Below are positions 232-49,222 of a DNA stretch of 64,000 nucleotides, one piece after another. Origin of the DNA: an uncultured Syntrophaceae bacterium. GTDB lineage: Bacteria; Desulfobacterota; SM23-61. The stretch is from positions 5,660 through 69,659 of the forward strand of contig CAZAGD010000043.1 in assembly GCA_964484485.1 (NCBI GenBank). The letters are read 5' to 3'. Numbering within the stretch: the stretch's first letter is position 1; every line of letters begins with the position of its first letter. The position numbers and the translations under genes were made by a program. A model generated the notes under the pieces. It made no database searches and was not told the DNA's origin. It saw only the letters and a list, made by a program, of their open reading frames with translations.

Positions 232-344
232 CTGACCGTCGATCAGTTTTTAAATTTCAATTTAATTCAGGCGGGAGGGAGAGACGCTCCCCCCTCCCGC
301 CTGTTTCCTGCTGGCGATAAATATTAAAACTTTTAGACGGTCAG
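232..344 (-). mobile_element. MITE family A, copy 1 (113 bp, internally deleted)
   Basis: Ends CTGACCGTCGATCAG...TTTTAGACGGTCAG; flanks TAGAAAAAT / TGGAAAAAT (9-bp duplication, 1 mismatch); internal GC hairpin at 268-303. Confidence 0.85.
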
Positions 345-596
345 TGGAAAAATATCTTGATCTGCCCAAAGAAAAATTAGATAATTAGTCCCAAAAGTTT
401 CCTCATTTTGCTCTACCAGATTTTTTAAATCCATAAGGTTTTAGGAGGGGAATAGCATTCTATTTATTCGTTTCTGCCGGGGAATGGTTTTTCGATTATT
501 GAAAAAAGATCGTTTATTTAGAGATCTCTCAATAAAAATAAATGAAATAGAAATTTAAGAGGCAGTAGAAAGCCAATTAAAAAGAGGAGGGGGAAA

Positions 597-1634
597 ATGA
601 AAAGAAACTTTTTAACGTTTATTTTAATTAGTTTTGTTTCTTTGTTCATGTTGGCAAATCATTGCTTTGCTCAAGAAGCCAAAAGAAAAGTAATTCGGTG
701 GGGGAGTTCTAGGGCCGGAAGCGCAGGGTACGTTGTTCTTTTTGGAGTGGCCAAGATAGTAAATGATCGAGCGCCAGAGCTCTACATCGAAGCAGTACCC
801 ACTGGTGGTTCCATTGCCTCGCAGAGAATGATGGGTAAAGGGGAATTAGATGGGGCCTATAGCGGCACTTGGAATTTATTAGACATGTATTTAAATCGGG
901 GGCCTTATGAAAAATCACCATATCCCCCCCAGGCCATCAAGCCATACCAGACCTGGTATACTTATCAAACCCAACAATTCGTGGCTACCAAAAGTGATAG
1001 AGCAGACATTAAAAGCTGGCGTGATTTAGCTGGAAAGAAAGTCTGTATTCCTTTCCCTGGGACAGCAGTTTTTGAAGTGCCCAAAGCAGCTTTTACCGCT
1101 ATGGGTATTTGGGATAAAATGAAAGTGGTCGATTTAGCTCTTTCGGGAATTCCCGATGCCTTAAATATGGGAACAATCGATGCTGTGGTTAGCTATGCAA
1201 ATGGGGGGGTTTTAGTCCCTTGGATGGCCGAGGTTGATTCGCGTTGCAAAATAAAAGTTGTCAACCCTACTCCCGCAGATGAAGAGATAGTTAAAAAGGT
1301 TTCCGGATACGTAACTGGCCTCTTAGATGCTAAAAAGGTTTTTTCTCAAGACGTGGGGGTTACCCAGGTTTTCACTATTTGCGACTATTATGGCTTCCAC
1401 ATTGGTAAAAATCTTTCTAAGGAACATGGATACAAATTATTTAAAATTCTAATTGAAAATGCCCAGGAAATAGAAAAAGTCCACGCCATGATGAAAGAGT
1501 ATGCACATGATCCTTTAGGGATGCAAGTAAAAGCTATAGGGAGCATACCTAAAATCCCCGTGCATCCTGGAGTCGCTAAATACTTAAAAGAGAAGGGATT
1601 ATGGCAAAAAGAGTGGATTGTGGGGGCCGAGTAA
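597..1634 (+). CDS. TAXI-family TRAP transporter solute-binding protein
   Basis: Signal peptide; GSSRAGSAGY, TGGS, and PVHPGVAKYLKE motifs typical of TAXI receptors; next to a fused permease; SD GGAGGGG. Confidence 0.88.
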   Translation: MKRNFLTFILISFVSLFMLANHCFAQEAKRKVIRWGSSRAGSAGYVVLFGVAKIVNDRAPELYIEAVPTGGSIASQRMMGKGELDGAYSGTWNLLDMYLNRGPYEKSPYPPQAIKPYQTWYTYQTQQFVATKSDRADIKSWRDLAGKKVCIPFPGTAVFEVPKAAFTAMGIWDKMKVVDLALSGIPDALNMGTIDAVVSYANGGVLVPWMAEVDSRCKIKVVNPTPADEEIVKKVSGYVTGLLDAKKVFSQDVGVTQVFTICDYYGFHIGKNLSKEHGYKLFKILIENAQEIEKVHAMMKEYAHDPLGMQVKAIGSIPKIPVHPGVAKYLKEKGLWQKEWIVGAE

Positions 1635-1680
1635 TTTTTTACTTTGAGGATAAAGGAAAGGACAAATTATTAGGAAGGCA

Positions 1681-3612
1681 ATGAAATTCGTTAATTTGAG
1701 AAATATCTACCTTACATTAGTGATCCTTTACGTCTTGGGAATTATGGCCTTCGCCATATTAATGTTTGAACCTCGTGAAGAATTAATTTTGCTTTACCTT
1801 CCCTTTACCTACTCTTTGATTATATTGAACCCCGAGGGAAAGATATGGCGAAGGTTTACACAAAAGAGTTATAAATTTCTTCTCATCGGAGTTTGTTTGC
1901 TTATGGTCGCTACGGTGGTCTATTTTCGTTCTCAGTATAATTCCTTGTTATATGAAAGATTAGGTAATTATTCCCAGGCTGATTATTTCTTTAGCATCGG
2001 TCTTATTATTCTTGCCTTTTTATTGACTTGGGCTAATTATGGGGGAAGCATACCAATATTAGCTTTGATCGCTTTAAGTTACGCTCACTTTGGCCAATAT
2101 TTTCCGGGCTTCCTTTATCATAAAGGTATATCAATAGAAAGAATTATAGCCATATCAGCAACTGAATTTAATTCGGGCGATGGCGTTTTGGGGTCTCTTC
2201 CGCAAATTGGCATTACTTGGATTGCTATTTTCACCATCTTTGCCGGTTTGGCTTCTGGGTTTGGAATTTTGGAGTATATCATTAAGATTTCTTATAACAT
2301 TTTCAAAAAGTTTAAATATGGCGTTCCGCAAATAGCCGTCATCTGCAGCATGATTTTTGGCATGTTTTCAGGAAGTGGGGCAGCTAATGTAGCTGGGACT
2401 GGGTCCTTTACCATACCTTTAATGAAGCGTTACCGAATGCCTCCGGCCATTGCTGGTGCCATTGAGTCGGTGGCTTCATCGGGGGGACAAGTTATGCCCC
2501 CCATAATGGGTGCAGCAGCATTCGTTATGGCAAGTTATTTAGGAAAATACTACTGGCAAATTGTGGTCGTAGGATTTTTGCCGGCCTTTATTTTTTACGC
2601 CTGTGTAGCTTTGGCTGTTTATATTTATTCTCGCCAATTTTTAGAAATACGCGCTGAAGTTGCTACCGAGGAATTAAGAATGTCCCAAATGTCTAAATGG
2701 GAAAAAATCCAAGGGCTACCTTTATTAGTGGCTATTTTAATGCTCATCATAATTATGAGTGTTTATTGGGTAGATGTTATGATTGCCGGGTTGGCCATGA
2801 TTCTTGCTTTTTTAATTACCTGGATTATCACTCAAGTTTTAGCTTCACCCAATAAGACAGAAATGATGCAGAGATTTCTCACCAATTTCCTAAGAGGAGC
2901 AAAAGAGGGAGCAGATACTACTGCCTCTATTACTACCATGATGGCTTGCATTGGGATTATTGTGGCTGTTTTAATTCAAACCGGACTTGCCCAAAAACTC
3001 TCTTTTACAATCGTGGATATCGCTGGGGGCAATAAAGTATTTTTAATCCTCTTAGCCTCGGGATTGTGCATTTTGTTTGGAATGGCTGTTAGTACCGTAG
3101 CTGCCTACATTTTGACTGTAACTCTCGTTGCCCCGGTTTTAGCAAATATGGGGGTCTCTCCCTTGATAACTCATTTTTCTGTTTTCTATTTTGCTATGAT
3201 GGGATTGATCACCCCTCCGGTTGCCCCTTGCTGCGCCGTTGCTTCAGGAATAGCTAAAGAAAGTTTTCTTAAGATATGTTGGTATTCCCTAAAAATAGGC
3301 GTTCCTTTGTTTATTCTTCCGTTGAGTTTCTTTTCTCAAGAAGCCATCATTATGCATGGCCCCAAAACCATTTCAGCTTTTTTTACAGTAGCAATTGCCA
3401 TGGCCGCAATAGTTTTAGGTATTAACCTTGGTTATTCAGGATTAAAATCTGTGGGCAAACGAATAATTTATCTGGGAACAGGTTTGTTTACTCTCTTTTA
3501 TGCCAAATATCATTGGCTATTCTTCGGTATGGCTTTATGTGCTTTATTTATTTTTGTAGAAATTTATTGGCTATATAAAGGAAAATATGATTATATCAAA
3601 AAAATGGTATAG
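1681..3612 (+). CDS. TRAP transporter fused 4TM/12TM permease (TAXI type)
   Basis: Highly hydrophobic; GSGAANVAGTGSFTIP, ASSGGQVMPPIMGAAAF and ITPPVA motifs. Confidence 0.92.
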   Translation: MKFVNLRNIYLTLVILYVLGIMAFAILMFEPREELILLYLPFTYSLIILNPEGKIWRRFTQKSYKFLLIGVCLLMVATVVYFRSQYNSLLYERLGNYSQADYFFSIGLIILAFLLTWANYGGSIPILALIALSYAHFGQYFPGFLYHKGISIERIIAISATEFNSGDGVLGSLPQIGITWIAIFTIFAGLASGFGILEYIIKISYNIFKKFKYGVPQIAVICSMIFGMFSGSGAANVAGTGSFTIPLMKRYRMPPAIAGAIESVASSGGQVMPPIMGAAAFVMASYLGKYYWQIVVVGFLPAFIFYACVALAVYIYSRQFLEIRAEVATEELRMSQMSKWEKIQGLPLLVAILMLIIIMSVYWVDVMIAGLAMILAFLITWIITQVLASPNKTEMMQRFLTNFLRGAKEGADTTASITTMMACIGIIVAVLIQTGLAQKLSFTIVDIAGGNKVFLILLASGLCILFGMAVSTVAAYILTVTLVAPVLANMGVSPLITHFSVFYFAMMGLITPPVAPCCAVASGIAKESFLKICWYSLKIGVPLFILPLSFFSQEAIIMHGPKTISAFFTVAIAMAAIVLGINLGYSGLKSVGKRIIYLGTGLFTLFYAKYHWLFFGMALCALFIFVEIYWLYKGKYDYIKKMV

Positions 3613-4741: not shown

Positions 4742-4828
4742 TTTTTCCATAAAAAGCGAATTCACTAAATAAGGGGTGAAGAGAAAAGCGCTTAGCGCCT
4801 GGCTAATACTTTGGGAAAGGAGAATAGT

Positions 4829-5686: not shown

Positions 5687-5689
5687 TTT

Positions 5690-15234: not shown

Positions 15235-15678
15235 CTAGTTTAAAATTCGTAAAATAACATTGGCACAAACCCCCGCTATTACATCATCCAAAACAACTGC
15301 CCAGCCACCTGATAGACGCTGGTGAACTAAATTAATAGGAGGTGGTTTAATTATATCGAAAAGACGAAAAAAAAGAAATCCCCATATAATATTGGCAAAA
15401 GAAAAAGGAATAAAAGAAATAGAAATAATACAGCCCAATATTTCATCAATAACTATTTTCGGGCTGTCTTTTAACTTGAAGATATTTTCTCCATAATGGG
15501 CCAACCACACCGCCAGAAAGAAGAGGGTTATGATGGTCAAAAGATAGATCGCCGGCGGAAGAGGGGCGATAAAGTAAAAAATTATAATTCCTAAAAGCGA
15601 GCCAAATGTTCCTGGCGCAAAAGGGATAAAACCCGTAAAAGCGCCCGAGGCCAAAAAAATTATAATAAATTTAGTCAT
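15235..15678 (-). CDS. pgpA: Phosphatidylglycerophosphatase A
   Basis: APGTFGS, D...IVIDEILG, FRLFDIIKP, VVLDDVIAG. Confidence 0.92.
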   Translation of the reverse strand: MTKFIIIFLASGAFTGFIPFAPGTFGSLLGIIIFYFIAPLPPAIYLLTIITLFFLAVWLAHYGENIFKLKDSPKIVIDEILGCIISISFIPFSFANIIWGFLFFRLFDIIKPPPINLVHQRLSGGWAVVLDDVIAGVCANVILRILN

Positions 15679-15759
15679 TATTTTTTTATTTTCTCAGATA
15701 CTTTAAAAGATTTTAATAAATTAGCTTTTTTTCTTTGGACATGTCAATATCAAGTAATC

Positions 15760-15927
15760 CTGACCGTCTAACAGTTTTAATATTTCTCCCCAGCAGGAAA
15801 CAGTCCAGAGGCAGGCGGGACTGTTATTTCCCGCCCTTACCTATAAAATGACAAGTGCCTCATTTTAATGAGCCTCTTTCCCATCCCCCTAAATTTGGCC
15901 CAAATTTCAAAATTGATCGAGGGTCGA
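15760..15927 (+). mobile_element. MITE family A, copy 2 (168 bp)
   Basis: CTGACCGTCTAACAG...TGATCGAGGGTCGA; flanks CAAGTAATC / CAAGTATTC; internal GCCTCATTTTAATGAGCC at 15857-15874. Confidence 0.8.
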
Positions 15928-16020
15928 CAAGTATTCTTGACCTTAGAAGAGTTAGCCCGCCTCTACAAAAAGTAGTCTCGAAAATTTTAATCGTTAATCA
16001 ATCTTTTTATAGTTTTTTCT

Positions 16021-23471: not shown

Positions 23472-24209
23472 ATGAGTAAACTTTATCTTCATCTTCGGAA
23501 AAGGTTTGAACAGGCAATTCTTAAACATAAGATGCTTGCGGCCGGAGATCGGGTATTAGTAGGCGTCTCCGGTGGGGCTGACAGCCTTACCCTTCTTAAG
23601 TTACTAACCGGCCCCATGCTTTTTGCCCCTAAGCCAGATTTTGTCTTAGCCGTGCACGTGGATTTGGGGTTTGATGGAAGCGCGGGAGATTCAATTTCTG
23701 CCTTGGAGAAATATTTCCAGGTCGAGGGATATAATTACCAGATTGAAAAAACGAATATTGGCCAGCTGGCGCATAGCGAATTTAACCGCAAAGCCAGCCC
23801 GTGCTTTTTATGTTCCCGTCTGCGCCGGAAGAAACTTTTTGAATTGGCCAGAGATTATAAGTGTAATAAAGTAGCTTTAGCTCATCATAAGGATGATTTG
23901 ATCGAGACTCTACTGCTCAATATTTTTTTTGCCCGAGAGATCAGCACCATGCCTCCTTATCAATCTTTCTTTAAAGGAAATTTTTACTTGATGCGGCCGC
24001 TGGCTTATATCGAGGAAACACTTCTCAAAAGATTTGCGCGTGAAGAAGGACTACCGGTGATGAAAGTAAATTGTCCATCGGCTGGGAAGACCAAAAGGCA
24101 GTATATAAAAGATTTATTAAAAAAATTGGAAGAGGATCATCGGGGAGTAAAAGATAATATTTTTAAGGCTATGAAGCATGTGAAACCAGATTATTTGTTG
24201 GTTGAATAA
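23472..24209 (+). CDS. ttcA: tRNA 2-thiocytidine synthetase TtcA-like PP-loop ATPase
   Basis: SGGADS PP-loop, CFLCSRLRR, LAHHKDD, MRPL, single Cys in CPS. Confidence 0.75.
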   Translation: MSKLYLHLRKRFEQAILKHKMLAAGDRVLVGVSGGADSLTLLKLLTGPMLFAPKPDFVLAVHVDLGFDGSAGDSISALEKYFQVEGYNYQIEKTNIGQLAHSEFNRKASPCFLCSRLRRKKLFELARDYKCNKVALAHHKDDLIETLLLNIFFAREISTMPPYQSFFKGNFYLMRPLAYIEETLLKRFAREEGLPVMKVNCPSAGKTKRQYIKDLLKKLEEDHRGVKDNIFKAMKHVKPDYLLVE

Positions 24210-24263
24210 CCCTCCCAACATCCCTTTAGAAAAGAGCGGAATCCCCCTTCTCTTTTTTTCTAA
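24205..24263. repeat. Degenerate family D hairpin repeat
   Basis: CCCTCCCAACATCCCTTTAGAAAAGAGCGG...CTCTTTTTTTCTAAGAG resembles 53922-53994. Confidence 0.35.
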
Positions 24264-24290
24264 GAGACTGTGTCATAATGAATAAATAGC

Positions 24291-24360
24291 TTAAATTTCA
24301 CTTCTCTCCCTCCTGCCTTTCTCCTGTTGGCGAGAGATATTAAAACTGATTGACTTTGAG
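24291..24360 (-). mobile_element. MITE family A, degenerate single-end remnant
   Basis: TTAAATTTCACTTCTCTCCCTCCTGCCTTTCTCCTGTTGGCGAGAGATATTAAAACTGATTGACTTTGAG aligns to the last ~70 bp of copy 48931-49222. Confidence 0.65.
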
Positions 24361-24372
24361 CCCATAAAAATA

Positions 24373-24400
24373 TTGACAATCAAATAAAATTTAATATTAT
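24373..24400 (+). promoter_or_regulatory. sigma70 promoter of tRNA-Met
   Basis: TTGACA-N16-TATTAT, 24 bp upstream of the tRNA. Confidence 0.6.
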
Positions 24401-24424
24401 ATTTCTATATTCTTCTTTCATCGT

Positions 24425-24501
24425 GGCGGTGTAGCTCAGTGGGTTAGAGCATGCGGCTCATATCCGCAGAGTCCGGGGTTCGAATCCCTGCACCGCCACC
24501 A
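24425..24501 (+). tRNA. tRNA-Met(CAT), elongator type
   Basis: GGCGGTG/CACCGCC acceptor stem, TGCGG-CTCATAT-CCGCA anticodon arm, GGTTCGAATCC T-arm, encoded CCA. Confidence 0.93.
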
Positions 24502-24640
24502 TTTTTCGCCCATTTAAATTTTAATTCCCCTCTCATATTTCTTTTGTATTTATTCATATAGGAACTCTAATTTTTTAAAATTATTTAATTATTTTGTAAA
24601 AAATAAAGGGCGAGATTATATGATTTTGAGCACCTTCAGG

Positions 24641-24785
24641 GTCATTCCTGTCCCAGGTGAGAATCCAGAAGAGATTAAAAAGATCTCTTAAAAAGTTTTG
24701 AAAAAAATAAATTTGGCCATTCTTGGGAGGCAAAAAGTCTATTGATTTTAATATGTTCTTAGGCTCCTGCTTCCGCAGGAGTGAC
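24641..24785. repeat. Family C (dRS3-like) inverted pair, degenerate
   Basis: GTCATTCCTGTCCCAGGTGAGAATCCAG (24641-24668) facing TAGGCTCCTGCTTCCGCAGGAGTGAC (24760-24785). Confidence 0.6.
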
Positions 24786-24997
24786 CAAAAATGGGTTTTC
24801 AGAGATCTCAAAAAAAAACCGGATTGCTGTTTTCATAGGAACCACGAAGGCTTATCTTGCTCAAAAGCTGAATGTATAAAACGAATCAGGCATGATTATC
24901 GGGCATCACTAATATATTTCAGTTAGTGACTATTTTTTTAAAAAGAAAGGTTCATTTTGGGTTTTCTTTAACCGGAATTGCGCAAATAAAAATATCG

Positions 24998-25291
24998 CTG
25001 ACCGTTGATCACTTTTAATATTTATCGCCAGCAAAAGACAGGCGGGAGGGGAGAGGTAAAATTAAAATCGGCTGGGAATTGCTTAACTCCTTCTTACCCA
25101 CCCTTTATCCGCCATAAACAGCGGGGATAAACTTATCTTGAAAATAAAAACGCGAATAATTCTCCCTAATTTAAAGTGCAGACTTTTTTATTCCCCGCCC
25201 ACGCCGATGAAAGAACCAGGGCCTCATTTTAATGAGCCTTTCTCCCTCCCGCCTGAAATAGGTACGAATTTCAAAAGTGATTGACGGTCAG
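24998..25291 (+). mobile_element. MITE family A, copy 3 (294 bp, full length)
   Basis: CTGACCGTTGATCAC...GTGATTGACGGTCAG; perfect 9-bp duplication AAAATATCG (24989-24997 / 25292-25300). Confidence 0.9.
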
Positions 25292-25389
25292 AAAATATCG
25301 ACCTTGACTTTTCATTCGGCACAGTTAATATAATTAAAAATTTATTTGTAAATTTATCCTACAAAAAATCGAGTGGGGAGGGATAATTT

Positions 25390-26376
25390 ATGTTAAACAA
25401 TTTTAAATCTTTTTTTTCGGTAATCGTTTTCTTTTTCTGCTTTTTTATTTTGAGCTCTCCTAATGTTCATGCCCAGGATTTTCCAACCAAGCCAATTACA
25501 ATTTATTGTGGCTTTGAAGCCGGAGCCACTACTGACCTTACAGCCCGAGCTTTAGCCGAAGAAGCCCAGAAGATCATGGGAGTGCCTGTAGTGGTGGAAA
25601 ATAAAGCCGGCGGGGGAGCTACCGTGGCTGCTACGCTTGTAGCCAGCAAAAAACCTGACGGGTATACTTTAGCGGTTATTTCCTCTTCCGCTTTAGACAC
25701 TCGCCACATGATGCTGAACGTACCTTATGACCCCTTTAAAGACTTCACTTATATTCTCGCCTACGCTACCTACATTGGCGGCATTTGCGTAAAGAAAGAA
25801 GCTCCCTTTAGAACTCTTCAAGATCTTTTAGAAGAGGCGCGCAAACGTCCGGGTGAATTATCTTATAGTTCTTCTGGAACTGGAGCCACGCAACAACTTG
25901 CCGTAGAATATTTAGCCAAGCAAGCAAATATAAAATTTAAGCATGTTCCTTACAAAGGAGGCGCTCCTGCTTGCACTGCACTCATTGGCGGCCATGTAGA
26001 CTTTACTGCCGGAGCCGGTATTCATTTAAACTATGTTAAACAAGGCGTATTCCGGATGCTGGCCGTGACTGTAACAGAGCAAAGAGATCCTGATTTTCCT
26101 GATATTCCCACTTTGAAAGACCTTGGTTATAAAGATGTTCCTCCTGCTCTGTATCTATTGGTCGCCCCTAAAGGGCTTCCCGATCCTATTTTTAAAAAAA
26201 TAGAAACGGTTTTTACGCAGGCCGCCCATTCTCCAGAATTTAAAAAAGTGCTCAAAAATTTATCAGTACCATTTACATTTAAGAATAGGAGAGAGTTGGA
26301 AACCGATTTTCCCAAAACTTATCAGTTTTATGCGCAGCTGCTCAAAGAGATAGGCATCGAAATGCGCAAGAAGTAA
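25390..26376 (+). CDS. Bug/TctC family tripartite tricarboxylate transporter substrate-binding protein
   Basis: Signal peptide; FPTKPI, AGATTDL.AR, VVVENKAGGG, KPDGYTL, HVPYKGGAPA. Confidence 0.92.
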   Translation: MLNNFKSFFSVIVFFFCFFILSSPNVHAQDFPTKPITIYCGFEAGATTDLTARALAEEAQKIMGVPVVVENKAGGGATVAATLVASKKPDGYTLAVISSSALDTRHMMLNVPYDPFKDFTYILAYATYIGGICVKKEAPFRTLQDLLEEARKRPGELSYSSSGTGATQQLAVEYLAKQANIKFKHVPYKGGAPACTALIGGHVDFTAGAGIHLNYVKQGVFRMLAVTVTEQRDPDFPDIPTLKDLGYKDVPPALYLLVAPKGLPDPIFKKIETVFTQAAHSPEFKKVLKNLSVPFTFKNRRELETDFPKTYQFYAQLLKEIGIEMRKK

Positions 26377-26531
26377 ACTTAAATTGCTGCTTACCATATC
26401 GGAAAAGTTGCCGAATCTCTCGGGGATGCATATTTTTAAATCTGGTCGCTCCATCTTTCTTCCTTTAGAGATTTAAATTTTTCCCTTAAAAAAATTTTTA
26501 TTTATCTTTTAAAAGTGAGCAAGAAAGTAAT

Positions 26532-26566
26532 AATCTCCTCTAGCCCCTCCTTAAAAAAGAGGGGAA
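26532..26566. repeat. Family D hairpin repeat
   Basis: AATCTCCTCTAGCCCCTCCTTAAAAAAGAGGGGAA. Confidence 0.5.
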
Positions 26567-26687
26567 TGAATAATGAATTTAGAAAAGGAAAGAATTCAGA
26601 AATAAGGAATTTGCTGATTATGGGCAACGTTTTTTAGGTATGCCCTTGCGGCCAATTACATCCTATTCTTAATAAGGTGAAATAAGT

Positions 26688-26744
26688 ATAGGACCAGGGC
26701 TTGGCCCTTGCTGGATAGCGGCCAGGGCTGAAGGTCTGCCTTAC
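26688..26744. repeat. Family B REP-like inverted pair (degenerate)
   Basis: ATAGGACCAGGGCTTGGCCCTTGCT (+) and GTAAGGCAGACCTTCAGCCCTGGCC (-), variants of GTAGGGCAAGGGCTTGACCCTTGCC. Confidence 0.55.
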
Positions 26745-26760
26745 GAAAAATATCTTTGAC

Positions 26761-26780
26761 AAAAAGTGATCGACGGTGAG
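26761..26780 (+). mobile_element. MITE family A lone terminal repeat
   Basis: AAAAAGTGATCGACGGTGAG differs by 1 nt from the copy 5 end AAAAAGTGATCGACGGTCAG; no partner end found. Confidence 0.6.
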
Positions 26781-26792
26781 TTTAAAATAATA

Positions 26793-26820
26793 TTGACATG
26801 AATTAAAAAAAAATTAAAAT
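26793..26820 (+). promoter_or_regulatory. Putative sigma70 promoter of dctPQM
   Basis: TTGACA-N16-TAAAAT. Confidence 0.5.
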
Positions 26821-26917
26821 AAGCTTTAATCTAATCTTTGGTCAATTGCTATAATTGAAATTGCTAAAGAACGAAAAAAAGACCAAGATTAAAAAAAATT
26901 AATAAAAGGAGGGGGTT

Positions 26918-27970
26918 ATGAAGAAAATATTTCTATTATTTATGGCCATATGCTTTATTTTAATCGCCGATATGGCCACAGCACAAGATCTGCCGAGGAA
27001 TCATTTCAAAGTAATTGGCTACCACAGCACCGTAGTTATGTCAATTAGAGATGAAATTCCTTTTTGGCGAGAAACTTTACCTAAAGCATCAAAAGGTGCG
27101 ATCACTGCGGATATTACACCTCTTGACCACATGGGGATAGATGACAAAACATTATTACGTTTGATACGCTTAGGCGTTATGGACTTCGCCAGCATGGATA
27201 TATCTAAGATGGCTGGTGATGATCCGCGCTTTGAGGGAGTTGACTTAGCCGGCTTAACGCTAGACCCAGTTAAAGCCCGCGCTGCCTGCGAAGCATACCG
27301 AGCTGTATTGGATAGGCAAATGCAAAAAAATTGGAATGCCAAATTATTGGTTTTTGGGGCCAATCCACCACAAGTATTTTGGTGCCGGGAAGTGATTGGT
27401 GGTCTTAAAGACCTTAAAGGAAAAAAGATTCGGGTTTTTAACCCCACGATGCGTGATTTCTTGGGTGGTATAGGAGCGACAGCCGTAAGCATGGCCTTTG
27501 CCGAAGTTGTGCCTGCGCTTAAACAAGGGGTGGTTGATTGTGCAGTTACCGGAAGTCTTTCTGGAAATACAGCGGGCTGGCCAGAAGTGACTAAGTCGCT
27601 TTACCCAATGTCCTTGGGCTGGAGCATTAATGTGACTGCTGTTAATTTAAAAACTTGGAATAGACTTGACCCACAGACGCAGAAATTCTTGCTGGAGCAA
27701 TTCAAAGCTTACGAGGAAAAAGTATGGCAAACCCATAAATTAGCCATGGAAGAAGCTGACAATTGCAATACGAATAAACAGCCATGCACATTGGGCAAAC
27801 CTGCTAACATGGTTATCGTACCCGTAAAGCCAGAGGAAGCGGAAATGCATAAGAAGCTGGTAGAGTCAGCAGTGCTTGCCGGCTGGGCCAAGCGGTGTGG
27901 TCCAGAATGCGCGGCTGAATGGAATGAAACAGTTGGTAAAGTACTTGGCCTAAAGGCCCCGATCAAATAA
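26918..27970 (+). CDS. dctP: TRAP transporter substrate-binding protein DctP
   Basis: Signal peptide; DLKGKKIRV, GATAVSMAFAEVVPALKQGVVD; upstream of dctQM. Confidence 0.9.
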   Translation: MKKIFLLFMAICFILIADMATAQDLPRNHFKVIGYHSTVVMSIRDEIPFWRETLPKASKGAITADITPLDHMGIDDKTLLRLIRLGVMDFASMDISKMAGDDPRFEGVDLAGLTLDPVKARAACEAYRAVLDRQMQKNWNAKLLVFGANPPQVFWCREVIGGLKDLKGKKIRVFNPTMRDFLGGIGATAVSMAFAEVVPALKQGVVDCAVTGSLSGNTAGWPEVTKSLYPMSLGWSINVTAVNLKTWNRLDPQTQKFLLEQFKAYEEKVWQTHKLAMEEADNCNTNKQPCTLGKPANMVIVPVKPEEAEMHKKLVESAVLAGWAKRCGPECAAEWNETVGKVLGLKAPIK

Positions 27971-28598: not shown

Positions 28599-29884
28599 TG
28601 CTCGGGACAGCTTTCTTAATCCTTATTGGACTCCTTGCTTTTGCTGTGCCTGTGGCGGCTGGGCTGGGAATTTTGGGCTTGGCTTTAGAATGGATTTATT
28701 CGAAGCTGCCCCTTAATATGGCCTTAGGTGAAATCTCTTGGGCTACCTCAAATAACTTTTTGCTGGTAGCTATTCCTTTCTTTGTTTTGCTGGGTGAAAT
28801 TCTCCTTCGTTCGGGAATAGCCGAAAGAATGTACAATTCTCTTATCCTTTGGGTGCCTTGGCTGCCAGGGGGGCTCATGCATACTAATATTGTCTCCTGC
28901 GCTATGTTTGCCGCGACTTCTGGATCGAGTGTCGCTACTGCCGCTACTATCGGCACTGTCGCCCTGGGGGAAATTCAGAAGCGGGGGTATTCAGAACGCC
29001 TTTTCTTAGGAACAATTGCGGCCGGCGGTACATTGGGTATCCTTATCCCACCATCGATTAATATGATCGTTTATGGAGTGCTTACTGATACCTCGATCCC
29101 CAAATTATATCTGGCTGGTTTTATCCCAGGATTTATTTTGGCGAGCTTATTTAGTTTGACTGTCCTTATTTGTTGTCTAATTAATCCTGAATGGGGAGGC
29201 AAACCTATTCCCGCTACATGGAGGCAAAGACTTAAAGCCCTACCCGACCTTATACCGCCTATTATTATATTTATAGCAGTTATCGGTTCTATCTATGCAG
29301 GCTGGGCAACGGCTACAGAGTCAGCTGCCTTAGGAGTAATTGCTGCCTTAGCCATTGCTGCCTGGCGGCGTCTTTTGTCCATAAAAATGCTAACCCACGC
29401 CTTTGAAGGAACCATGCGGACAACGGCAATGATTATGGCAATTCTAATCGCTGCCTATTTTCTTAACTTTGTAATGGGTTCTATCGGTCTGCTTAAGAAA
29501 GTAAACGATTTTATTATGGGTCTGCAACTAACTCCCAGGCAATTACTTTTTGCTGTTATAGTTTTCTATGTCATTTTAGGCATGTTTATGGAGACTCTCT
29601 CTATGATGGTAGCTACTGTGCCAATTATTACGCCGATTATGGTAAAAATGGGGTTCGATCCTGTATGGTTTGGTGTTTTAATCGTGATCCTCATGGAAAC
29701 GGCCATGATCACCCCCCCAGTTGGTATTAACCTTTATGTGGTGCAAGGCCTGCGCAAGAGCGGACGCATCAACGATGTCATTATTGGCGCTTCCCCTTTT
29801 GTACTGGCTATGTTTGCGATAATGGCTATTATTTCATACTGGCCTGAACTTGTCCTCTGGTTGCCCAAAGTACTGGAAAGATAA
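28598..29884 (+). CDS. dctM: TRAP transporter large permease DctM
   Basis: SGSSVATAA, GGTLGILIPPS, ITPPVGINL. Confidence 0.93.
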   Translation: MLGTAFLILIGLLAFAVPVAAGLGILGLALEWIYSKLPLNMALGEISWATSNNFLLVAIPFFVLLGEILLRSGIAERMYNSLILWVPWLPGGLMHTNIVSCAMFAATSGSSVATAATIGTVALGEIQKRGYSERLFLGTIAAGGTLGILIPPSINMIVYGVLTDTSIPKLYLAGFIPGFILASLFSLTVLICCLINPEWGGKPIPATWRQRLKALPDLIPPIIIFIAVIGSIYAGWATATESAALGVIAALAIAAWRRLLSIKMLTHAFEGTMRTTAMIMAILIAAYFLNFVMGSIGLLKKVNDFIMGLQLTPRQLLFAVIVFYVILGMFMETLSMMVATVPIITPIMVKMGFDPVWFGVLIVILMETAMITPPVGINLYVVQGLRKSGRINDVIIGASPFVLAMFAIMAIISYWPELVLWLPKVLER

Positions 29885-30068: not shown

Positions 30069-30184
30069 CTGGATTCTTGCCTGCTTCAGCCTGCTTCAGC
30101 CTGCTTCAGCCTGCTTCATGCTTCCGCAGGAATGACAAATATCAGCCAACGAATGAGAGTGTCATTCCCGTGAAAACGGGAATC
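30069..30184. repeat. Family C (dRS3-like) pair with internal 4 x 10-bp tandem expansion
   Basis: CTGGATTCTT-(GCCTGCTTCA)x4-TGCTTCCGCAGGAATGAC, then GTCATTCCCGTGAAAACGGGAATC (exact ATTCCC-N8-GGGAAT at 30164-30183). Confidence 0.8.
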
Positions 30185-30239: not shown

Positions 30240-31106
30240 TTATTCCTTGAAATCATATAGATTCGCTGGATTATCAGCTAATACAGCTCGGCGGATCGAT
30301 TCATTGGGTATCCATTCTAACAAAAGATCCAGAAGATCTGCCTCTTCTGGCTTATTTCCAGGTGTATGATTGGGATGAGGCCAGTTGGTAGCCCAAACTA
30401 AGCGATCAGGACGAACGGAGACTAATGCTTTAATTTTCTCGCCGACGTCTTCATAATGAGGGGGTCCTGATAAACTGGCCAAATAGGGAGCAGAAATTTT
30501 TACCCAGCATCTGCCCGTTTCCAGGAAACGGAGGAGTTCCTGAAATCCGGGATCGTTGATTCCTTTTTCAGGAGGAGTTCGCCCCACATGGTCAATAACC
30601 ACATCCACAGGGATTTTTTTCAAAATTGGAATCGCGGCGGGGAGCCAATTGCCGCGGTCTTGAATTTGGAGGTGCCACCCCAAAGGAGCAATGCGTTTGG
30701 CCATTTCTGGGACATCGCTCATGCGGAAATCATCTACTAAAAGGTAGAAACGCAGCCCCCGCATTCCGCCCTCGTGCAGCTTTCGCAATTCTGCATCACT
30801 TATATCTTTTTTGGTCACCGCCACTCCTCGTGCCCGTGCTAAACCTAATTGTTGGATAGCATCGAGAGTGCAACTATTGTCGGTGCTGTAGAGGGAAGGC
30901 TGAACAATTACACATCTTTCTATACCCAGGCGATTAAGCATTGTTTTATAAGCTTCGAGCGAAGCCAACCAATTTGTGGGCCGACGTCCTGGAAAAGGTG
31001 GATATTTATCAGCTGGACCATAAATATGGGCATGAGTATCGCAAGACCGCGGCGGCGCTATCATACGGGGTTTACGCCCTTCACCTGGAATTATTAATGG
31101 GAGCAT
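30240..31106 (-). CDS. Amidohydrolase_2 family lactonase (LigI / 2-pyrone-4,6-dicarboxylate lactonase-like)
   Basis: CDTHAHIYGP, LGIERCVIVQPS, VIDHVG, WVKISAPY, WATNWPHP. Confidence 0.75.
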   Translation of the reverse strand: MLPLIIPGEGRKPRMIAPPRSCDTHAHIYGPADKYPPFPGRRPTNWLASLEAYKTMLNRLGIERCVIVQPSLYSTDNSCTLDAIQQLGLARARGVAVTKKDISDAELRKLHEGGMRGLRFYLLVDDFRMSDVPEMAKRIAPLGWHLQIQDRGNWLPAAIPILKKIPVDVVIDHVGRTPPEKGINDPGFQELLRFLETGRCWVKISAPYLASLSGPPHYEDVGEKIKALVSVRPDRLVWATNWPHPNHTPGNKPEEADLLDLLLEWIPNESIRRAVLADNPANLYDFKE

Positions 31107-31135
31107 AAAATAAACGCCATCTTAATGCGTGGTTC

Positions 31136-31208
31136 GGCAAGCCCCAAGGGCTTGCCCTACGAGAAATTTAAAAAACCTCAAATGTAGGGCAAGGGCTTGA
31201 CCCTTGCC
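31136..31208. repeat. Family B REP doublet (REPIN-like)
   Basis: 31136-31160(-) GTAG-GGCAAGCCC-TTG-GGGCTTGCC and 31184-31208(+) GTAG-GGCAAGGG-CTTGA-CCCTTGCC; perfect stems, 23-bp spacer. Confidence 0.8.
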
Positions 31209-31374
31209 GCATTTGGTTTTATTTCTTATATGCAATTACGACCCAATTTCATTGGGGAAACTCGATAAAGCCAGACCACGGAGTAAGATAAGAGTGATAA
31301 CTGTAAATATTTAATTGCTCCGATTAATAGGTATATTTCTTTTTTAATGAAGTCCATGGTGATTCCTTCCTTTT

Positions 31375-36953: not shown

Positions 36954-38024
36954 TTACTTTTTTGCTTCCCATTCTTTTATTCTTTTTCTCTCTTCTTCCA
37001 AAGCTTTGTTTTGCCAAGCTTCATGTTCGGGAGTCCATTTCCCTTTTTCTTGAGCATACTTAATAAGGCCTTTATGGAAAGGAATAAAGATCGGCTTATT
37101 GAGGTCTAAAGTAATTTCCAGAGACCACTCTTCAGTAGAAGGCTTGCTAACATCTTTGTAAAGATCCCGACCTTCAACTAAAGCTTTGACAATTGTATAG
37201 ATCACCATTTCGTCAACAGTTTCATAGGTAGTTAAAGAATACGGATAATAGGCAAGCCACTTGTAACCTCCTTCTCCCAGAGCTCCATAGTTTGCCCAAA
37301 TCGGAAAGGCCATGAAGGGCGCAAATTTCTTCATTCGTTCCCAGGCTTCTTTGTCTTTCTGATCCATAGGTAAGTAACGCAGTCCATAAGGAGCAGATTC
37401 CCATTCTTTCATGATGGGAGTAACCGGGCAGGCGTGGCAGGCATCGGCCGCCTTTTCCATAACCATTTTTATTCCCGCTATATATCCAGCGGCTTTAACT
37501 AACACAACATCTTCTTTCCGTAAGTTTCCATAAGCTAAAAGGGCAGGGACAGTTAAAGAAAAAAGGCCGGGAGGATAAGCAACTCTTTTGCCCTTTAAGT
37601 CAGCCCAGCTCTTAATTCCCGAGTCACCTCGTACGGCCATTCCGTGATGGATAACATTGCCAGCAAAAACTAATCTAATATTTTGTGGTCCCCAATCTTT
37701 AGCAGCAAATTCTTCTAATCCATTACTGACAAAATATAGTGTGGCCGCCGTGAGGATAGAAACTTCAGCCTCACCCTTTCTTATAGGCAGAAGCCTCCCC
37801 ACATCTGTATCTGCTGGTGTGGGGCGAGCTTTAATACCGGTCTTCTTTTCGATGGTATCTGAAAAAGCAGTAGCTAAAATATTACCAAGAGATCCTATAG
37901 GGTAGCCCGTAATAGTTATAACTTTCGGTAACTTAGAAGGAGCAGAACTTGAGATGGAAATAAAGACTAAAAATATTGCGGATAAAGTCAAAGCTGTACA
38001 AAAAACTAAAACCTTCTTTTTCAT
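36954..38024 (-). CDS. TAXI-family TRAP solute-binding protein
   Basis: Signal peptide; DWGPQNIR, DLKGKRVA, PFHKGLIKY; paralog of 33392-34528. Confidence 0.85.
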   Translation of the reverse strand: MKKKVLVFCTALTLSAIFLVFISISSSAPSKLPKVITITGYPIGSLGNILATAFSDTIEKKTGIKARPTPADTDVGRLLPIRKGEAEVSILTAATLYFVSNGLEEFAAKDWGPQNIRLVFAGNVIHHGMAVRGDSGIKSWADLKGKRVAYPPGLFSLTVPALLAYGNLRKEDVVLVKAAGYIAGIKMVMEKAADACHACPVTPIMKEWESAPYGLRYLPMDQKDKEAWERMKKFAPFMAFPIWANYGALGEGGYKWLAYYPYSLTTYETVDEMVIYTIVKALVEGRDLYKDVSKPSTEEWSLEITLDLNKPIFIPFHKGLIKYAQEKGKWTPEHEAWQNKALEEERKRIKEWEAKK

Positions 38025-38261
38025 AATAGCACCTCCCTTTTTTTGTTCCCCTTCTTAGATAGGACTGCTTATAAAAGCATTCCTGAAGGGCGACATCGCC
38101 TTTCGTATAAAAGAGTACATCTTTTCTTGTTAAGGAAATTTTTGTTTTTTGATAAATTGGCGCCCTGCTCAAAATTGATAAAAATTATGCTGATAGTTGA
38201 ACTTTTCAAATTTTTTGAATATTAATATTTAAAACCCCCAACTTGTCAAGAGGATTTTTGA

Positions 38262-38444
38262 CTGACCGTCGAACAGTTTTATTTTTCGCTCCCAAATGTG
38301 ACTGAGCGGAAGGGGGAGAGGCGAAATTAAATAGCTCCTTATCTTCCCCCCCCTGCCTATAAAAAAATAAGTGCCTTATTTTAATGAGCTTTTCCCCCTC
38401 CTGCCCTGAATTGCGCTGAAATCTAAAAAGTGATCGACGGTCAG
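38262..38444 (+). mobile_element. MITE family A, copy 5 (183 bp)
   Basis: CTGACCGTCGAACAG...GTGATCGACGGTCAG; flanks GATTTTTGA / GATTTTGGA; internal GCCTTATTTTAATGAGCT. Confidence 0.85.
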
Positions 38445-38451
38445 GATTTTG

Positions 38452-38581
38452 GAGACCTCTGAAAAATCCATTTTATTGTCCCTCCTGGGCAGCAGGCGTT
38501 AACCAGCATCTGGCGATTATTTGATCCAAGATTGGCCAAGAATGGACATATTTCTGCCTTAAACACTTTTTCGGAGATCAC
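38452..38581. mobile_element. Possible second, unrelated miniature element (~130 bp)
   Basis: Imperfect inverted ends GAGACCTCTGAAAAAT / CTTTTTCGGAGATCAC (12/16 complementary); no clear TSD. Confidence 0.3.
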
Positions 38582-44501: not shown

Positions 44502-44517
44502 AATTAGCGTTTTCCCT

Positions 44518-46459: not shown

Positions 46460-46474
46460 ATTCGTTCCTTTCTA

Positions 46475-47551
46475 TTATAGTATTTCCAAAGGCAGCAGCA
46501 TTTCTTCCGTATAACCAAATTCACTAAGGAAACGTTGCGTAGCTTCCATATTTGGCTTCCATCCCATCTTTTCGCCGCGAAATCGAGTGGCTAAAACATA
46601 GTCGAAGATAGGGGAAAAAACTCCCATAGCCAGAAAATTTGGTTGACTACGGGGGTACCCTCCTGGCCCTTTTTCACTAGCCCAAAGGGCATCTAAAAGA
46701 CAAAGTTGCTGGCGGGGGTAAACTACTTTTCCAGTCTGCAGATCCATGGGACCCAAAATCTCTGGGGTTTTATTAATGGCCAACAAATAATCGAGGGCGC
46801 CTTCCCGATGACCGGGAGCCGGATCAAAGGTACCAAAGTGATTTTTCATAGTCATGGTAAAGCCTCCAAAAGTCTGGCTATGTCCTTTACACATGGCTAT
46901 ATTGATGAGAATATCCACATATCCGTCCACCAAAGGTTTGAGGCATTTTGCTTGTCCACGAGATTGCCGCCAGGGTTCGGGAACTTTAGTTAAAGCAGTC
47001 ACTCCTCCCCATTCATTTTCAATTTTGACGCCTGCGGGCAGGTCGGCAAAAGGTGTATTTTGGGCCATAGAGCCACCATGAATTCCATCGTAAATGTGAA
47101 TGTTCTCAGGATTTATTCGGCAGATCTTGACCAGGACGTGGCAAATTTTAGACATCACCGCGCTGCGGGTATGTTGGAGAGCAATGTTATTAGTTTTAAT
47201 GGCCACGACTGTTTCCGACCAGGATTTACGCGGTGGTTTTATGAAAATGGTTGACCAAGCTTTCTCAGGATTAGACAATTTAGTTAGAGCGCAAGCTAAT
47301 TTATCTAAGTTTTCCCAAACTACTTCTTTAACTACTAATTTTTCCTGCCAAGACCAAGAAGAAATCGGCTGCAAGTCTCTGGTCATGCGTGAGTCAATAA
47401 TGCCCACCACGCGCCGATGGTCAATATGTGGGTGAACCTGGGTACCTTTGGCCCAGTGGGCTTTAATCTCGCGGCCGTAAAGAAAAGGGGCAACAGCCGC
47501 GGAGGTAGCGATTATTGATTTTTTAAGAAAGTTGCGACGGGATATAGACAT
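46475..47551 (-). CDS. DUF362-like protein with Tat signal
   Basis: SRRNFLKK; IKTN; CKGH..GGFTMTMKNHFG; start at ATG after SD GAGGAGG. Confidence 0.65.
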   Translation of the reverse strand: MSISRRNFLKKSIIATSAAVAPFLYGREIKAHWAKGTQVHPHIDHRRVVGIIDSRMTRDLQPISSWSWQEKLVVKEVVWENLDKLACALTKLSNPEKAWSTIFIKPPRKSWSETVVAIKTNNIALQHTRSAVMSKICHVLVKICRINPENIHIYDGIHGGSMAQNTPFADLPAGVKIENEWGGVTALTKVPEPWRQSRGQAKCLKPLVDGYVDILINIAMCKGHSQTFGGFTMTMKNHFGTFDPAPGHREGALDYLLAINKTPEILGPMDLQTGKVVYPRQQLCLLDALWASEKGPGGYPRSQPNFLAMGVFSPIFDYVLATRFRGEKMGWKPNMEATQRFLSEFGYTEEMLLPLEIL

Positions 47552-47649
47552 AAAATTTTTCACCTCCTCATGATTTATTTTGACCCACTTTGGAGGTTTT
47601 CAGCAAGTTTTATTTTGTTATAATAAAAAATAAAAATAGGGGAGGGAAT

Positions 47650-48897
47650 ATGAATTTAAAAAATTTGCGGGTGAATGAGCATCGGCTACGTACATCCTTG
47701 GAAAAAATGGCGGAGATTGGCCAAACCCCCAAAGGGGGTGTACACCGCTTGGCCCTCTCGGATGAAGACCGCGAAGCCCGAAATTTGTTTGTCAATTGGC
47801 TCAAAGAATTGGGCTTAGAAATTATTATTGATGAGTTGGGAAATATATTTGGTCGCCGGCGCGGCGAACAAGACCATTTTCCTGCCGTGCTTATGGGGTC
47901 TCATTTAGACACTCAGCCGCAAGGGGGGAGGTTTGACGGAATCTTAGGAGTTTTAGGAGCTTTGGAAGTCATGCGTACCCTTCATGAAAACAAGATTAAT
48001 ACAGAGCGGCCTTTGGTCATCGTTGATTGGACCAATGAAGAAGGATCACGATTTTCCCCAGCCATGATGGGCTCGGGAGTTTGGACGGGAAAGTTGAACC
48101 GAGATTGGGTTTACAATAGAACGGATATAAAAGGAAAGAGCGTAGGGGAAGAGCTGGTCAGGATAGGTTATCGCGGTGAAAAAGAAGCTAAGAGTTTTCC
48201 GGTGCACGCTTATTTTGAATTGCACATAGAACAGGGACCCATTTTGGATAAAGAAGGCATCAAGATTGGAGTGCCGCGGGGGATCGTGGGCATAGTTTGG
48301 GCGGACCTTTTCGTGGAAGGGAGATCAAACCAAGTAGGGCCTACGCCCATGGAGGGAAGGAATGATGCCCTTTGTGCCGCGGCCGAAATGATTTTACAGG
48401 TGGAAAAATTGCCCCGAGATATGGGTGGAAATATGGTAGCTACCGTAGGAGAAATCCATAATTTACCTAATTCGCGCAATATTATTCCCGGGAAAGTGCG
48501 CTTTACAGTAGATATTCGTTCTTGGGATGATGAATTACTTAGGCGCGGAAAAGAGTATCTGCAGACCCAAGTCCAAAAAATTGCGGAGCGGCGGGGATGC
48601 GCTTTCCGCTGGGAAGATATCTGGATGATAAACCATACCCCGTTTGCGGAAGAATTGATCCAACTGGTAGAAAAGACGGCCACAGAACTGGGTTATTCTA
48701 CGAGAGAGATGGTCAGCGGCGCAGGACATGACGCCAGTTATTTAAGCCAAATAGCCCCGACCGCCATGATTTTTGTGCCCAGTATTGGGGGGCGGAGTCA
48801 TGTAGAAGTGGAAGAAACCAAGTGGGCTGACTGTGCAGCCGGAGCGAATGTCCTCTTGCATTGTGTCTTGCAAGCAGCAGCCGGAAGAGCAGAATGA
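47650..48897 (+). CDS. M20 Zn-dependent hydrolase (N-carbamoyl-amino acid / allantoate amidohydrolase family)
   Basis: GSHLDT, GG.FDG..GV, TNEEG.RF, ELHIEQGP, SGAGHDA, SH...E; start MNLKN after SD GGGGAGG. Confidence 0.88.
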   Translation: MNLKNLRVNEHRLRTSLEKMAEIGQTPKGGVHRLALSDEDREARNLFVNWLKELGLEIIIDELGNIFGRRRGEQDHFPAVLMGSHLDTQPQGGRFDGILGVLGALEVMRTLHENKINTERPLVIVDWTNEEGSRFSPAMMGSGVWTGKLNRDWVYNRTDIKGKSVGEELVRIGYRGEKEAKSFPVHAYFELHIEQGPILDKEGIKIGVPRGIVGIVWADLFVEGRSNQVGPTPMEGRNDALCAAAEMILQVEKLPRDMGGNMVATVGEIHNLPNSRNIIPGKVRFTVDIRSWDDELLRRGKEYLQTQVQKIAERRGCAFRWEDIWMINHTPFAEELIQLVEKTATELGYSTREMVSGAGHDASYLSQIAPTAMIFVPSIGGRSHVEVEETKWADCAAGANVLLHCVLQAAAGRAE

Positions 48898-48930
48898 ATT
48901 TCTGTTTTAAAAATTTTAAGAACAACACCC

Positions 48931-49222
48931 TTGACCGTCGATCAGTTTTTAAATTCCACGTTAATTCAGGCGGGAGGGAGAGAGACTCATTAAAATGAGG
49001 CACATATTCTTTCATAGGTACAGGCGGGGAAATAGACATTTATTTTAAAAGAAGGAAGCTATTATTTAAGTTTATCTGGCAGGACAAGTATGTCCCCGCC
49101 GTTCTTGGCGGAGAGAAGGTGAGTAAGAGAGGAATGGTCATTTCCCAGCCGATTTTAATTTCGCCTCTCCCCTCCCGCCTGTTTCCTGCTGGTGAGAATC
49201 ATTAAAACTGTTAGACGGTCAG
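48931..49222 (-). mobile_element. MITE family A, copy 6 (292 bp, full length)
   Basis: TTGACCGTCGATCAG...CTGTTAGACGGTCAG; flanks ACAACACCC / ATAACACCC; colinear with 24998-25291. Confidence 0.88.

Follow-up and report, generated by a model that had tools for sequence, protein, structure and literature searches.

A family of IS4-derived MITEs with probable insertion at a fixed distance from promoter -35 hexamers

A 64-kb stretch of DNA from an uncultured Syntrophaceae bacterium (contig CAZAGD010000043.1; this whole stretch is hereafter the window) contains short repeats that share one type of inverted end. What are these repeats, and how did they come to lie where they do? Our analysis answers the first question plainly: they are a family of miniature inverted-repeat transposable elements (MITEs), non-autonomous and derived from an insertion sequence (IS) of the IS4 family. 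The second question has a probable answer. To judge from their flanking sequences, the elements insert at a fixed position, with the element tip 12 bp upstream of sigma70-type -35 hexamers. This hexamer-adjacent placement, missed in an earlier reading of the window from its letters alone (the sequence-only reading), is the most unusual property of the family.

The repeats and the insertion sequences that share their ends

With up to three mismatches allowed, the end motif CTGACCGTCGATCAGTTTT matched the 64-kb window 10 times (at 232/344, 15760, 24998/25291, 38262/38444, 48931/49222 and the lone 26762-26780), as against 0 matches in 100 dinucleotide-preserving shuffles. The family comprises five complete copies of 113-294 bp and two lone ends, with a 19-bp inverted end consensus CTGACCGTC(G/T)A(T/A)CA(G/C)TTTT. 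Copy 2 ends on the right (to 15927) in a degenerate sequence, GAGGGTCGA, which the three-mismatch threshold excludes but which can be aligned to the remaining copies. At 24303-24360, an end module of 58 nt (72% identical) forms the second lone end. All five complete copies have 9-bp flanks, one pair exact and four with one mismatch. Alignment identified copies 3 and 5 as full-length (~293 bp; 75% identical to each other) and copies 1 (113 bp), 2 (168 bp) and 4 (183 bp) as internal-deletion derivatives, and every copy in the window is intergenic. Folding of the master copy gives a long hairpin (-47.5 kcal/mol, z = -5.3). Searches with blastn-short, using all five copies as queries, found no additional copies in the window. 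The sequence-only reading had already described the five complete copies, the two lone ends, the inverted ends and the 9-bp flanks, and this description was borne out (10 ends against 0 expected). It had also listed identity with a known structured non-coding RNA as grounds for refuting it, and none emerged: Rfam at gathering thresholds matched two tRNAs only in the whole window and none of the repeats. The seven loci are as follows.

Copy 1, 232-344, minus strand: MITE of 113 bp, deletion derivative, B end on the left and A end on the right; duplications TAGAAAAAT (223-231) and TGGAAAAAT (345-353); right flank TGGAAAAAT, ATC, the -35-like TTGATC (357-362), a 17-nt spacer and GATAAT; downstream lies the NMT1_3 solute-binding gene 597-1634.
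Copy 2, 15760-15927, plus strand: MITE of 168 bp, deletion derivative with degenerate right end; duplications CAAGTAATC (15751-15759) and CAAGTATTC (15928-15936); left flank, read outward, GATTACTTG-ATA-TTGACA, with TTGACA on the minus strand (15742-15747) facing pgpA (15235-15678, minus strand); in the right flank TTGACC (15937-15942) directly abuts the duplication and faces pilB.
Lone end, 24303-24360, minus strand: degenerate A-type end, given as 24291-24360 in the sequence-only reading; flank CCCATAAAA (24361-24369), ATA, TTGACA (24373-24378), a 16-nt spacer and TATTAT; at the promoter-like site of tRNA-Met (24425-24501).
Copy 3, 24998-25291, plus strand: full-length MITE of 294 bp; exact duplication AAAATATCG at 24989-24997 and 25292-25300; right flank AAAATATCG, ACC, TTGACT (25304-25309), a 16-nt spacer and TAATAT; upstream of tctC (25390-26376).
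Lone end, 26762-26780, minus strand: 19-bp end; flank TTTAAAATA (26781-26789), ATA, TTGACA (26793-26798), a 16-nt spacer and TAAAAT; upstream of dctP (26918-27970).
Copy 4, 38262-38444, plus strand: MITE of 183 bp, deletion derivative; duplications GATTTTTGA (38253-38261) and GATTTTGGA (38445-38453); left flank, read outward, TCAAAAATC-CTC-TTGACA, with TTGACA on the minus strand (38244-38249) facing an NMT1_3 gene (36954-38024, minus strand).
Copy 5, 48931-49222, minus strand: full-length MITE of 292 bp, inverse orientation; duplications ACAACACCC (48922-48930) and ATAACACCC (49223-49231); GTGATT at offset 13 instead of TTGAC, with the nearest TTGACA at 49256.

The same ends bound autonomous ISs elsewhere. 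At locus L066 (the loci fetched for comparison carry L numbers) they enclose a 1606-bp element with two overlapping open reading frames (ORFs), encoding a 107-amino-acid (aa) DUF6788 protein and a 376-aa transposase. The sequence-only reading had proposed looking for an IS4-type DDE transposase between such ends, and L066 is one of many that have it: full-length ISs of 1564-1606 bp, with the same 19-20-bp ends and 9-bp duplications, were recovered from several phyla (L066, L063, L087 and L107-L138). The tips of L107-L138 read CTGACCGT in all copies, and the 9-bp duplications recovered around autonomous ISs were GTCCTCACT, AAAAATCTC, GAAGTCGGT and AGAGCAAAC. The catalytic protein is one unbroken ORF of 370-379 aa, and the DUF6788 ORF of 106-109 aa (OrfA) always lies upstream of it with an ATGA overlap.

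In an alignment of 34 transposase sequences, D96, D161 and E264 were invariant, with spacers of 64 and 102 residues, and Y257-x2-R260-x3-E264-x6-K271 was invariant or nearly so. The D-64-D-102-E triad falls within the IS4-family spacing D(60-110)D(100-150)E and, like the Y(2)R(3)E(6)K signature, agrees with the family as defined by De Palmenaer, Siguier and Mahillon in 2008 (PMC2266710). An AlphaFold2 (AF2) model of the transposase, with a mean confidence (pLDDT) of 86.6, found its best Foldseek matches in the PDB among Tn5 transposase structures (1MUS, 3ECP and 4DM0; E 4e-9, probability 1.0, TM score 0.56-0.60), and the predicted fold is Tn5-like. Neither phmmer nor a profile hidden Markov model matched the transposase to any PDB sequence; the fold search alone links it to Tn5. 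In a collection of 5.8 billion proteins the transposase family forms 741 clusters, almost all unnamed.

How do the MITEs relate to these ISs? Over the terminal 19-25 bp they match both ends of five ISs (L066, L087, L107, L126 and L135) with 89-95% identity, and the similarity is confined to these terminal 19-25 bp, for which reason we rejected the idea that the MITE is a deletion derivative of any of the sampled ISs. In the window, tblastn with the transposase and OrfA found no homologue; the copies are thus non-autonomous. A metagenome contig (L108) carries a MITE of the same subfamily as window copies 1 and 5 (94-96% identical to them over 50 nt) in tandem with an autonomous IS. Within the genome of the window, the MITEs are presumably mobilised in trans.

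An empty site was recovered for copy 3. In a related strain (L004, 98.8% identical downstream) this copy is absent and the site contains a single 9-mer, AAAATATTG, with TTGACT intact: the strain joins GCAAATAAAAATATTG directly to ACCTTGACTTTTC, whereas the window reads AAAATATCG, the 294-bp element, AAAATATCG again and then ACCTTGACT. Because the empty site retains TTGACT, the hexamer is host DNA, and the possibility that it forms part of the element was ruled out. Among the recovered contigs no empty sites were found for copies 1, 2, 4 and 5, all contigs being from strains 98-100% identical that carry these copies. The single 9-mer at an orthologous site is what the sequence-only reading had suggested looking for. 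Together with the ISs that share the MITE ends and encode a DDE/YREK transposase, the Tn5-like fold prediction, the lack of a transposase in the window and the tandem at L108, it upholds the earlier view of a non-autonomous element of IS4/IS50 type.

Position of the insertions beside the -35 hexamer

Read outward from an element, one flank consists of the 9-bp duplication, 3 bp, TTGAC(A/T) and, after 17 nt, a -10-like hexamer. Of the 161 non-redundant ends from all fetched loci, 62 had TTGAC starting at offset 13, and each of the remaining offsets between 1 and 55 was seen once at most; the reverse complement GTCAA gave no offset peak in the same ends. The set of 161 includes chance matches to the end motif as well as flanks that do not face a promoter. 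With two ends per element and the hexamer beside one of them, 62/161 is close to saturation. When ends of repeated elements were counted, the hexamer stood at offset 13 in 46 and at offsets 10 and 12 in one each. An exact TTGAC stands at offset 13 on one or both sides of 19 of the 26 complete elements, and most of the others either form tandems or chimeras or carry near-matches (TTGATT, TTGCCT, TTGATC). In the window the rule holds at six of the seven loci, copy 1 with TTGATC among them; the exception is copy 5.

The hexamer is accompanied by further promoter signals. Its sixth base is A in 39 and T in 21 of the 62 ends, and a T-A-W-A..T signal appears 17 nt after it. At least four of six positions matched TATAAT at a spacer of 16-18 nt in 54/62 ends, compared with 11/62 at a control spacing. 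When the window was scanned for promoters from 24200 to 27000, the two best sites, 24373 and 26793 (both 11/12), as well as 25304, each lay exactly 12 bp from an element end. Of the TTGAC[AT] hexamers in the window, elements occupy five of the 14 that are intergenic and none of the 36 that are genic. Judged by these sequence signals, the insertion sites are real sigma70-type promoters.

Between the tip and the hexamer, the 12 bp show no conservation, and the duplicated 9-mers are mildly A-rich. Either end of the MITE may face the promoter, the A end doing so in 13/26 cases and the B end in 7/21 (p = 0.37, no orientation bias), and full-length ISs likewise occur in both orientations; the hexamer always reads away from the element. 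At several loci (L008, L012, L036, L039, L048, L049, L069, L070, L079, L080, L103, L108 and L144) the flanking 9-mer is followed by the tip of another element, an arrangement explained if each newcomer used the promoter-proximal copy of the 9-mer.

A second IS family shows the same spacing. Its ends are CTTGCCCCCCTTCACTTTTGGGG (CTTGCC...), its length is ~1.95 kb, and its 401-aa IS4-like transposase is 25% identical to that of the first family. It also has a small ORF, of 109 aa, which is unrelated to DUF6788 and gives weak hits to HARE-HTH and to the N-terminal domain of RNA polymerase delta (E ~1e-3). At L001-L003 (L003 2181-4150) this IS sits in the same 9/10-mer that lies beside the lone end at window position 26780, and window 26781-26790 is its empty site. 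The family is widespread in metagenomes, a scan with its end returning 44 loci (L151-L194). In these, TTGAC occurred 3 bp beyond a 9-10-bp duplication (offset 14) in 21 of 55 non-redundant ends and at other offsets at most twice. At L185/L161 one target, GTTTTTGGC, next to a single TTGACA, was used by both the second IS and a MITE. The tips of the two families (CTGAC.. and CTTGCC..) may themselves resemble the hexamer.

Taken as a whole, the explanation of a MITE family of IS4 ancestry whose elements insert with their tips 12 bp upstream of sigma70-type -35 hexamers is, in our estimation, quite probable. Several points weigh against it. The evidence is comparative throughout. Copy 5 and a few complete elements have no hexamer, and many metagenomic IS contigs have non-matching flanks, which are probably assembly chimeras or products of recombination between copies. 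Genic hexamers are never occupied, so that purifying selection certainly shapes the observed pattern. In ISTth2 of Thermus thermophilus, the nearest named IS that we found, the single copy examined lacks TTGACA at 3 bp past the duplication. The MITE core is unrelated to the sampled ISs, which leaves the ends as the sole pointer to the parent, and no autonomous copy was found in the window. Finally, the transposase scores below curated IS4 cut-offs: against the NCBIfam model NF033591 it reaches E 3e-36 and 125 bits (cut-off 152), and the L066 protein reaches 21.6 bits against PF01609, DDE_Tnp_1 (cut-off 23). Several homologues of the transposase carry precomputed PF01609 hits, and scores under the curated cut-offs indicate a divergent lineage rather than an equivalog of the curated models.

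Proposed recognition of the hexamer and comparison with known systems

How might such placement arise? In the mechanism that we propose, a transposase supplied in trans would bind the two inverted ends, excise the element and integrate it through 9-bp-staggered cuts, which would generate the 9-bp duplication; by analogy with IS10 and IS50, we infer cut-and-paste chemistry. The 9-bp target lies exactly 3 bp upstream of TTGAC(A/T), in practice the -35 element, and the tip would land at about -48, so that the -35 element, the spacer and the -10 element would stay intact while the DNA upstream would be displaced. A two-fold symmetric transpososome could take the hexamer on either side; such symmetry would allow either element end to face the promoter, which fits the orientation data. 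Re-insertion at the promoter-proximal copy of the 9-mer would build tandem arrays.

As to what reads the hexamer, we lean slightly towards the transposase itself, reading the DNA directly at 3 bp outside the 9-bp staggered cut, rather than the small ORF or RNA polymerase. Exact TTGAC is found in ~84% of promoter-side ends, whereas -35 elements of typical promoters are conserved far more loosely, as compilations of E. coli promoters show. Stringency above ordinary -35 conservation favours direct DNA readout over recruitment by RNA polymerase. Moreover, the two IS families have the same spacing and unrelated small ORFs; they have nothing but the transposase in common, which points to it as the reader. 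OrfA was considered as a reader resembling sigma region 4 or carrying some other helix-turn-helix (HTH): its DUF6788 fold, as modelled by AF2 (pLDDT 87; a helix, three strands and a long helix), matches no PDB fold (best E 0.16). Without a DNA-binding match, and with the small ORF of the second family unrelated to it, OrfA is not favoured.

The alternative that fares best accepts the same MITE/IS system and has the transpososome tethered, perhaps via the small ORF, to promoter-bound RNA polymerase holoenzyme through sigma region 4 or the alpha C-terminal domain (alpha-CTD), in which case the fixed distance to the -35 element would reflect the geometry of the polymerase complex instead of DNA readout. 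The genuine -10 signal at the right spacing and the vacancy of genic TTGAC[AT] would follow naturally, although selection against genic insertions can explain the -10 association as well. The duplicated 9 bp also coincide with the proximal UP-element subsite, at about -46 to -38, where alpha-CTD binds, and the weak HARE-HTH and polymerase delta hits of the second family's small ORF point in the same direction. Tethering is harder to reconcile with a TTGAC stricter than in promoters generally, with the same spacing in two families despite their unrelated small ORFs, and with a DUF6788 model that matches no RNA polymerase-binding or HTH fold. Furthermore, the pattern extends across metagenome-assembled genomes (MAGs) labelled as at least three phyla, for which a DNA motif is an easier explanation than a conserved protein contact. 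We consider tethering unlikely. If it nevertheless operated, the polymerase-recruited transpososome would be a bacterial counterpart of tethering of the Ty3/TFIIIB type, and the accumulated MITEs might then serve as insulators, tolerated or co-opted by the host, that isolate promoters from the regulatory DNA upstream, a scenario that we regard as equally doubtful.

It is very improbable that insertion is random or merely AT-biased and that promoter adjacency is survivorship. Compact genomes do require survivors to be intergenic, with only 14% of the window lying between genes, and the A-richness of the 9-mers would suit a mild base preference. Selection, however, is unable to give single-base precision such as 46 ends at offset 13 against one each at 10 and 12, nor would it make independent insertions, those of the second IS family included, reuse an identical 9-mer, or turn the hexamer always away from the element. 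Single-base precision and the repeated use of one 9-mer thus speak for targeting and not for survivorship.

That the repeats are instead a host regulatory or structured-RNA module (an element of the repetitive extragenic palindromic, or REP, type, an operator array or a small RNA) can be dismissed almost entirely, because its two attractions, the long hairpin and a promoter-region placement that puts 4/7 loci upstream of solute-binding-protein genes, meet a hairpin expected of any MITE with inverted ends, a promoter hexamer kept in the empty site, duplications that abut the tips, unconserved DNA between tip and hexamer, both orientations, no Rfam match and transposase-carrying ISs bounded by the same ends.

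The family can now be set beside known systems. Bacterial MITEs are small, non-coding, multi-copy elements with inverted ends borrowed from ISs and with target duplications; they are intergenic, form hairpins and are polymorphic for presence and absence, all as here. Unlike the Correia elements of Neisseria and the RUP elements of pneumococcus, the present family is IS4-derived, makes 9-bp duplications and is precisely placed at a promoter element rather than at a simple target such as TA.

With IS10, IS50 and the IS4 family at large it shares 5'-CT ends, imperfect inverted ends of ~19 bp and the 9-bp duplication; IS4-family duplications span about one helical turn (8-13 bp), and here they are 9 bp in MITEs and ISs alike. 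The 13/19 match to the IS50 inside end counted by the sequence-only reading is correct for the end sequence it quoted, which we take to be that of IS50. The transposase is ~100 aa shorter than that of Tn5, and classical IS4 members lack the DUF6788 gene that here precedes the transposase. IS10 favours a symmetric target, NGCTNAGCN, and IS50 favours GNTYWRANC, inside the duplication, whereas the target here is a flanking TTGAC(A/T) hexamer outside it. The IS4 review lists only in-duplication or AT-rich target preferences, and it gives the IS50-subgroup consensus as ends CW------Y---CA-A--W-, direct repeats (DR) of 8-9 bp and a size of 1350-1550 bp (PMC2266710). Our family fits six of the seven specified end positions and the DR (9 bp), its ISs at 1564-1606 bp being slightly above the size range. 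From the IS10 subgroup, with which it has CT ends and a DR of 9 bp in common, it departs in IS size (above 1200-1350 bp) and in a 9-mer without the GCTNAGC signal.

ISTth2 (~31% aa identity over 67-82% of the protein) belongs to the IS10 subgroup of the IS4 family and has a DR of 9 bp (PMC6352166). Its ends, CTGAGTTCTCATCACTTT, share CTGA.....ATCACTTT with our family, and on pTT27 (L195 996-2171) it is flanked by an exact 9-bp duplication, GTCCTCCAG. It differs in its length of 1.18 kb and in having only one ORF, the element itself containing no DUF6788 gene; immediately beyond its left end is a hypothetical ORF of 106 aa (L195).

Other mobile elements are directed to landmarks: Ty3 to RNA polymerase III start sites, Tn7 to attTn7, IS1397 to REP/BIME sequences and group IIC introns to positions after terminators. 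Like them, the present elements use a recurrent, gene-sparing landmark as a safe haven, with many sites per genome; all four employ other enzymes and mechanisms, and Ty3 relies on protein tethering to TFIIIB where direct DNA readout is favoured here. None of the bacterial examples uses the -35 hexamer, to our knowledge. Full-text literature searches turned up nothing on IS insertion directed to -35 elements, on an IS with these end sequences or on DUF6788. A MITE derived from an IS4-family element is of an ordinary kind; what goes beyond the ordinary is an unnamed, divergent two-gene IS lineage and an apparently hexamer-directed insertion seen in two IS families and in MAGs labelled as at least three phyla.

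The target preferences of DDE insertion sequences are usually described as short, weak or symmetric. A fixed distance to the -35 element, if true, would be a new bacterial safe-haven strategy in which genes and core promoters are spared and hundreds of sites per genome are on offer. It would provide a testable system for a Tn5-like transpososome that reads DNA outside the staggered cut, and possibly a route to promoter-directed insertion tools, and it would account for tandem pile-ups of elements at strong promoters. Each insertion would also mark a real promoter, a free annotation in uncultivated phyla such as Thermodesulfobacteriota, Aminicenantes and others, and repeated displacement of upstream regulatory DNA could rewire regulation.

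Spread, strain variation and other features of the window

The strain of the window recurs in several JGI, ENA and Logan assemblies. A scan for the end motif in one genome per species returned more than 100 stretches. Dozens came from a Thermodesulfobacteriota MAG from Kamchatka, mostly 35-55 nt from contig ends, a position that is the mark of a high-copy, assembly-breaking repeat; the others came from MAGs labelled Aminicenantes, Syntrophaceae, 'delta proteobacterium' and Eubacteriales. Two complete copies in the Kamchatka MAG are 99.3% identical. We considered whether this MAG represents the window's species and rejected it, its sampled genes sharing only 30-47% protein identity with window genes and being probably paralogues.

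These copies bear on two further claims of the sequence-only reading. It had noted a GATC in one end only of each complete copy and linked this to the Dam-sensitivity of the IS50 inside end. The observation holds for all five copies in the window. The link to Dam is not supported, since GATC occurs in both ends of the master copies from Kamchatka and is missing from either end of most autonomous ISs, which have CTATCAC, CTAACAC or CGAACAG at that position; unlike in IS10 and IS50, GATC is not conserved in the ends here. It had also regarded the insertions as old and retained. The 75% identity of the two full-length copies agrees with such age, whereas the strain polymorphism of copy 3 and the near-identical copies in the related MAG do not.

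MITE copies appear to act as rearrangement breakpoints. At L144 (1060-1145) copy 5 is kept (98%), and its left flank, compared with the window at 48931, comes from another genomic region that ends in a decayed MITE end 9 bp away. In L001/L002, nt 1-138 correspond to window 31088-31224 inverted (93%) and are joined to sequence collinear with the window from ~24521, which points either to ~6.7 kb having been inverted or rearranged between the strains or to a join made in assembly.

Solute-binding proteins of TRAP/TTT-type transporters are encoded downstream of four of the seven element loci (NMT1_3 twice, TctC and DctP; 597-1634, 25390-26376, 26918-27970 and 36954-38024), and an autonomous IS copy on L109 likewise precedes an NMT1_3 gene. 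Probably these genes simply carry consensus -35 boxes.

Three further repeats in the window are noted for completeness. A small palindromic repeat, GGCAAG(G/C)CC...GGGCTTGCCCTACG, occurs in pairs at 31130-31215 and 54340-54465; it differs from the MITE and constitutes a hairpin unit of REP-like type, and a search with a 13-mer gave no more matches than chance predicts (2 against 1.3 expected). At 30079-30118, in the intergenic space between ORFs ending at 29884 and 30240, lies a perfect tandem repeat of 10 bp, GCCTGCTTCA x4. Finally, the region 53521-54637 is a gene-free 1.1 kb with no Rfam match that contains TGGAATAA x4.4 (53717-53751), related 16-mers (53879-53909) and several hairpins.

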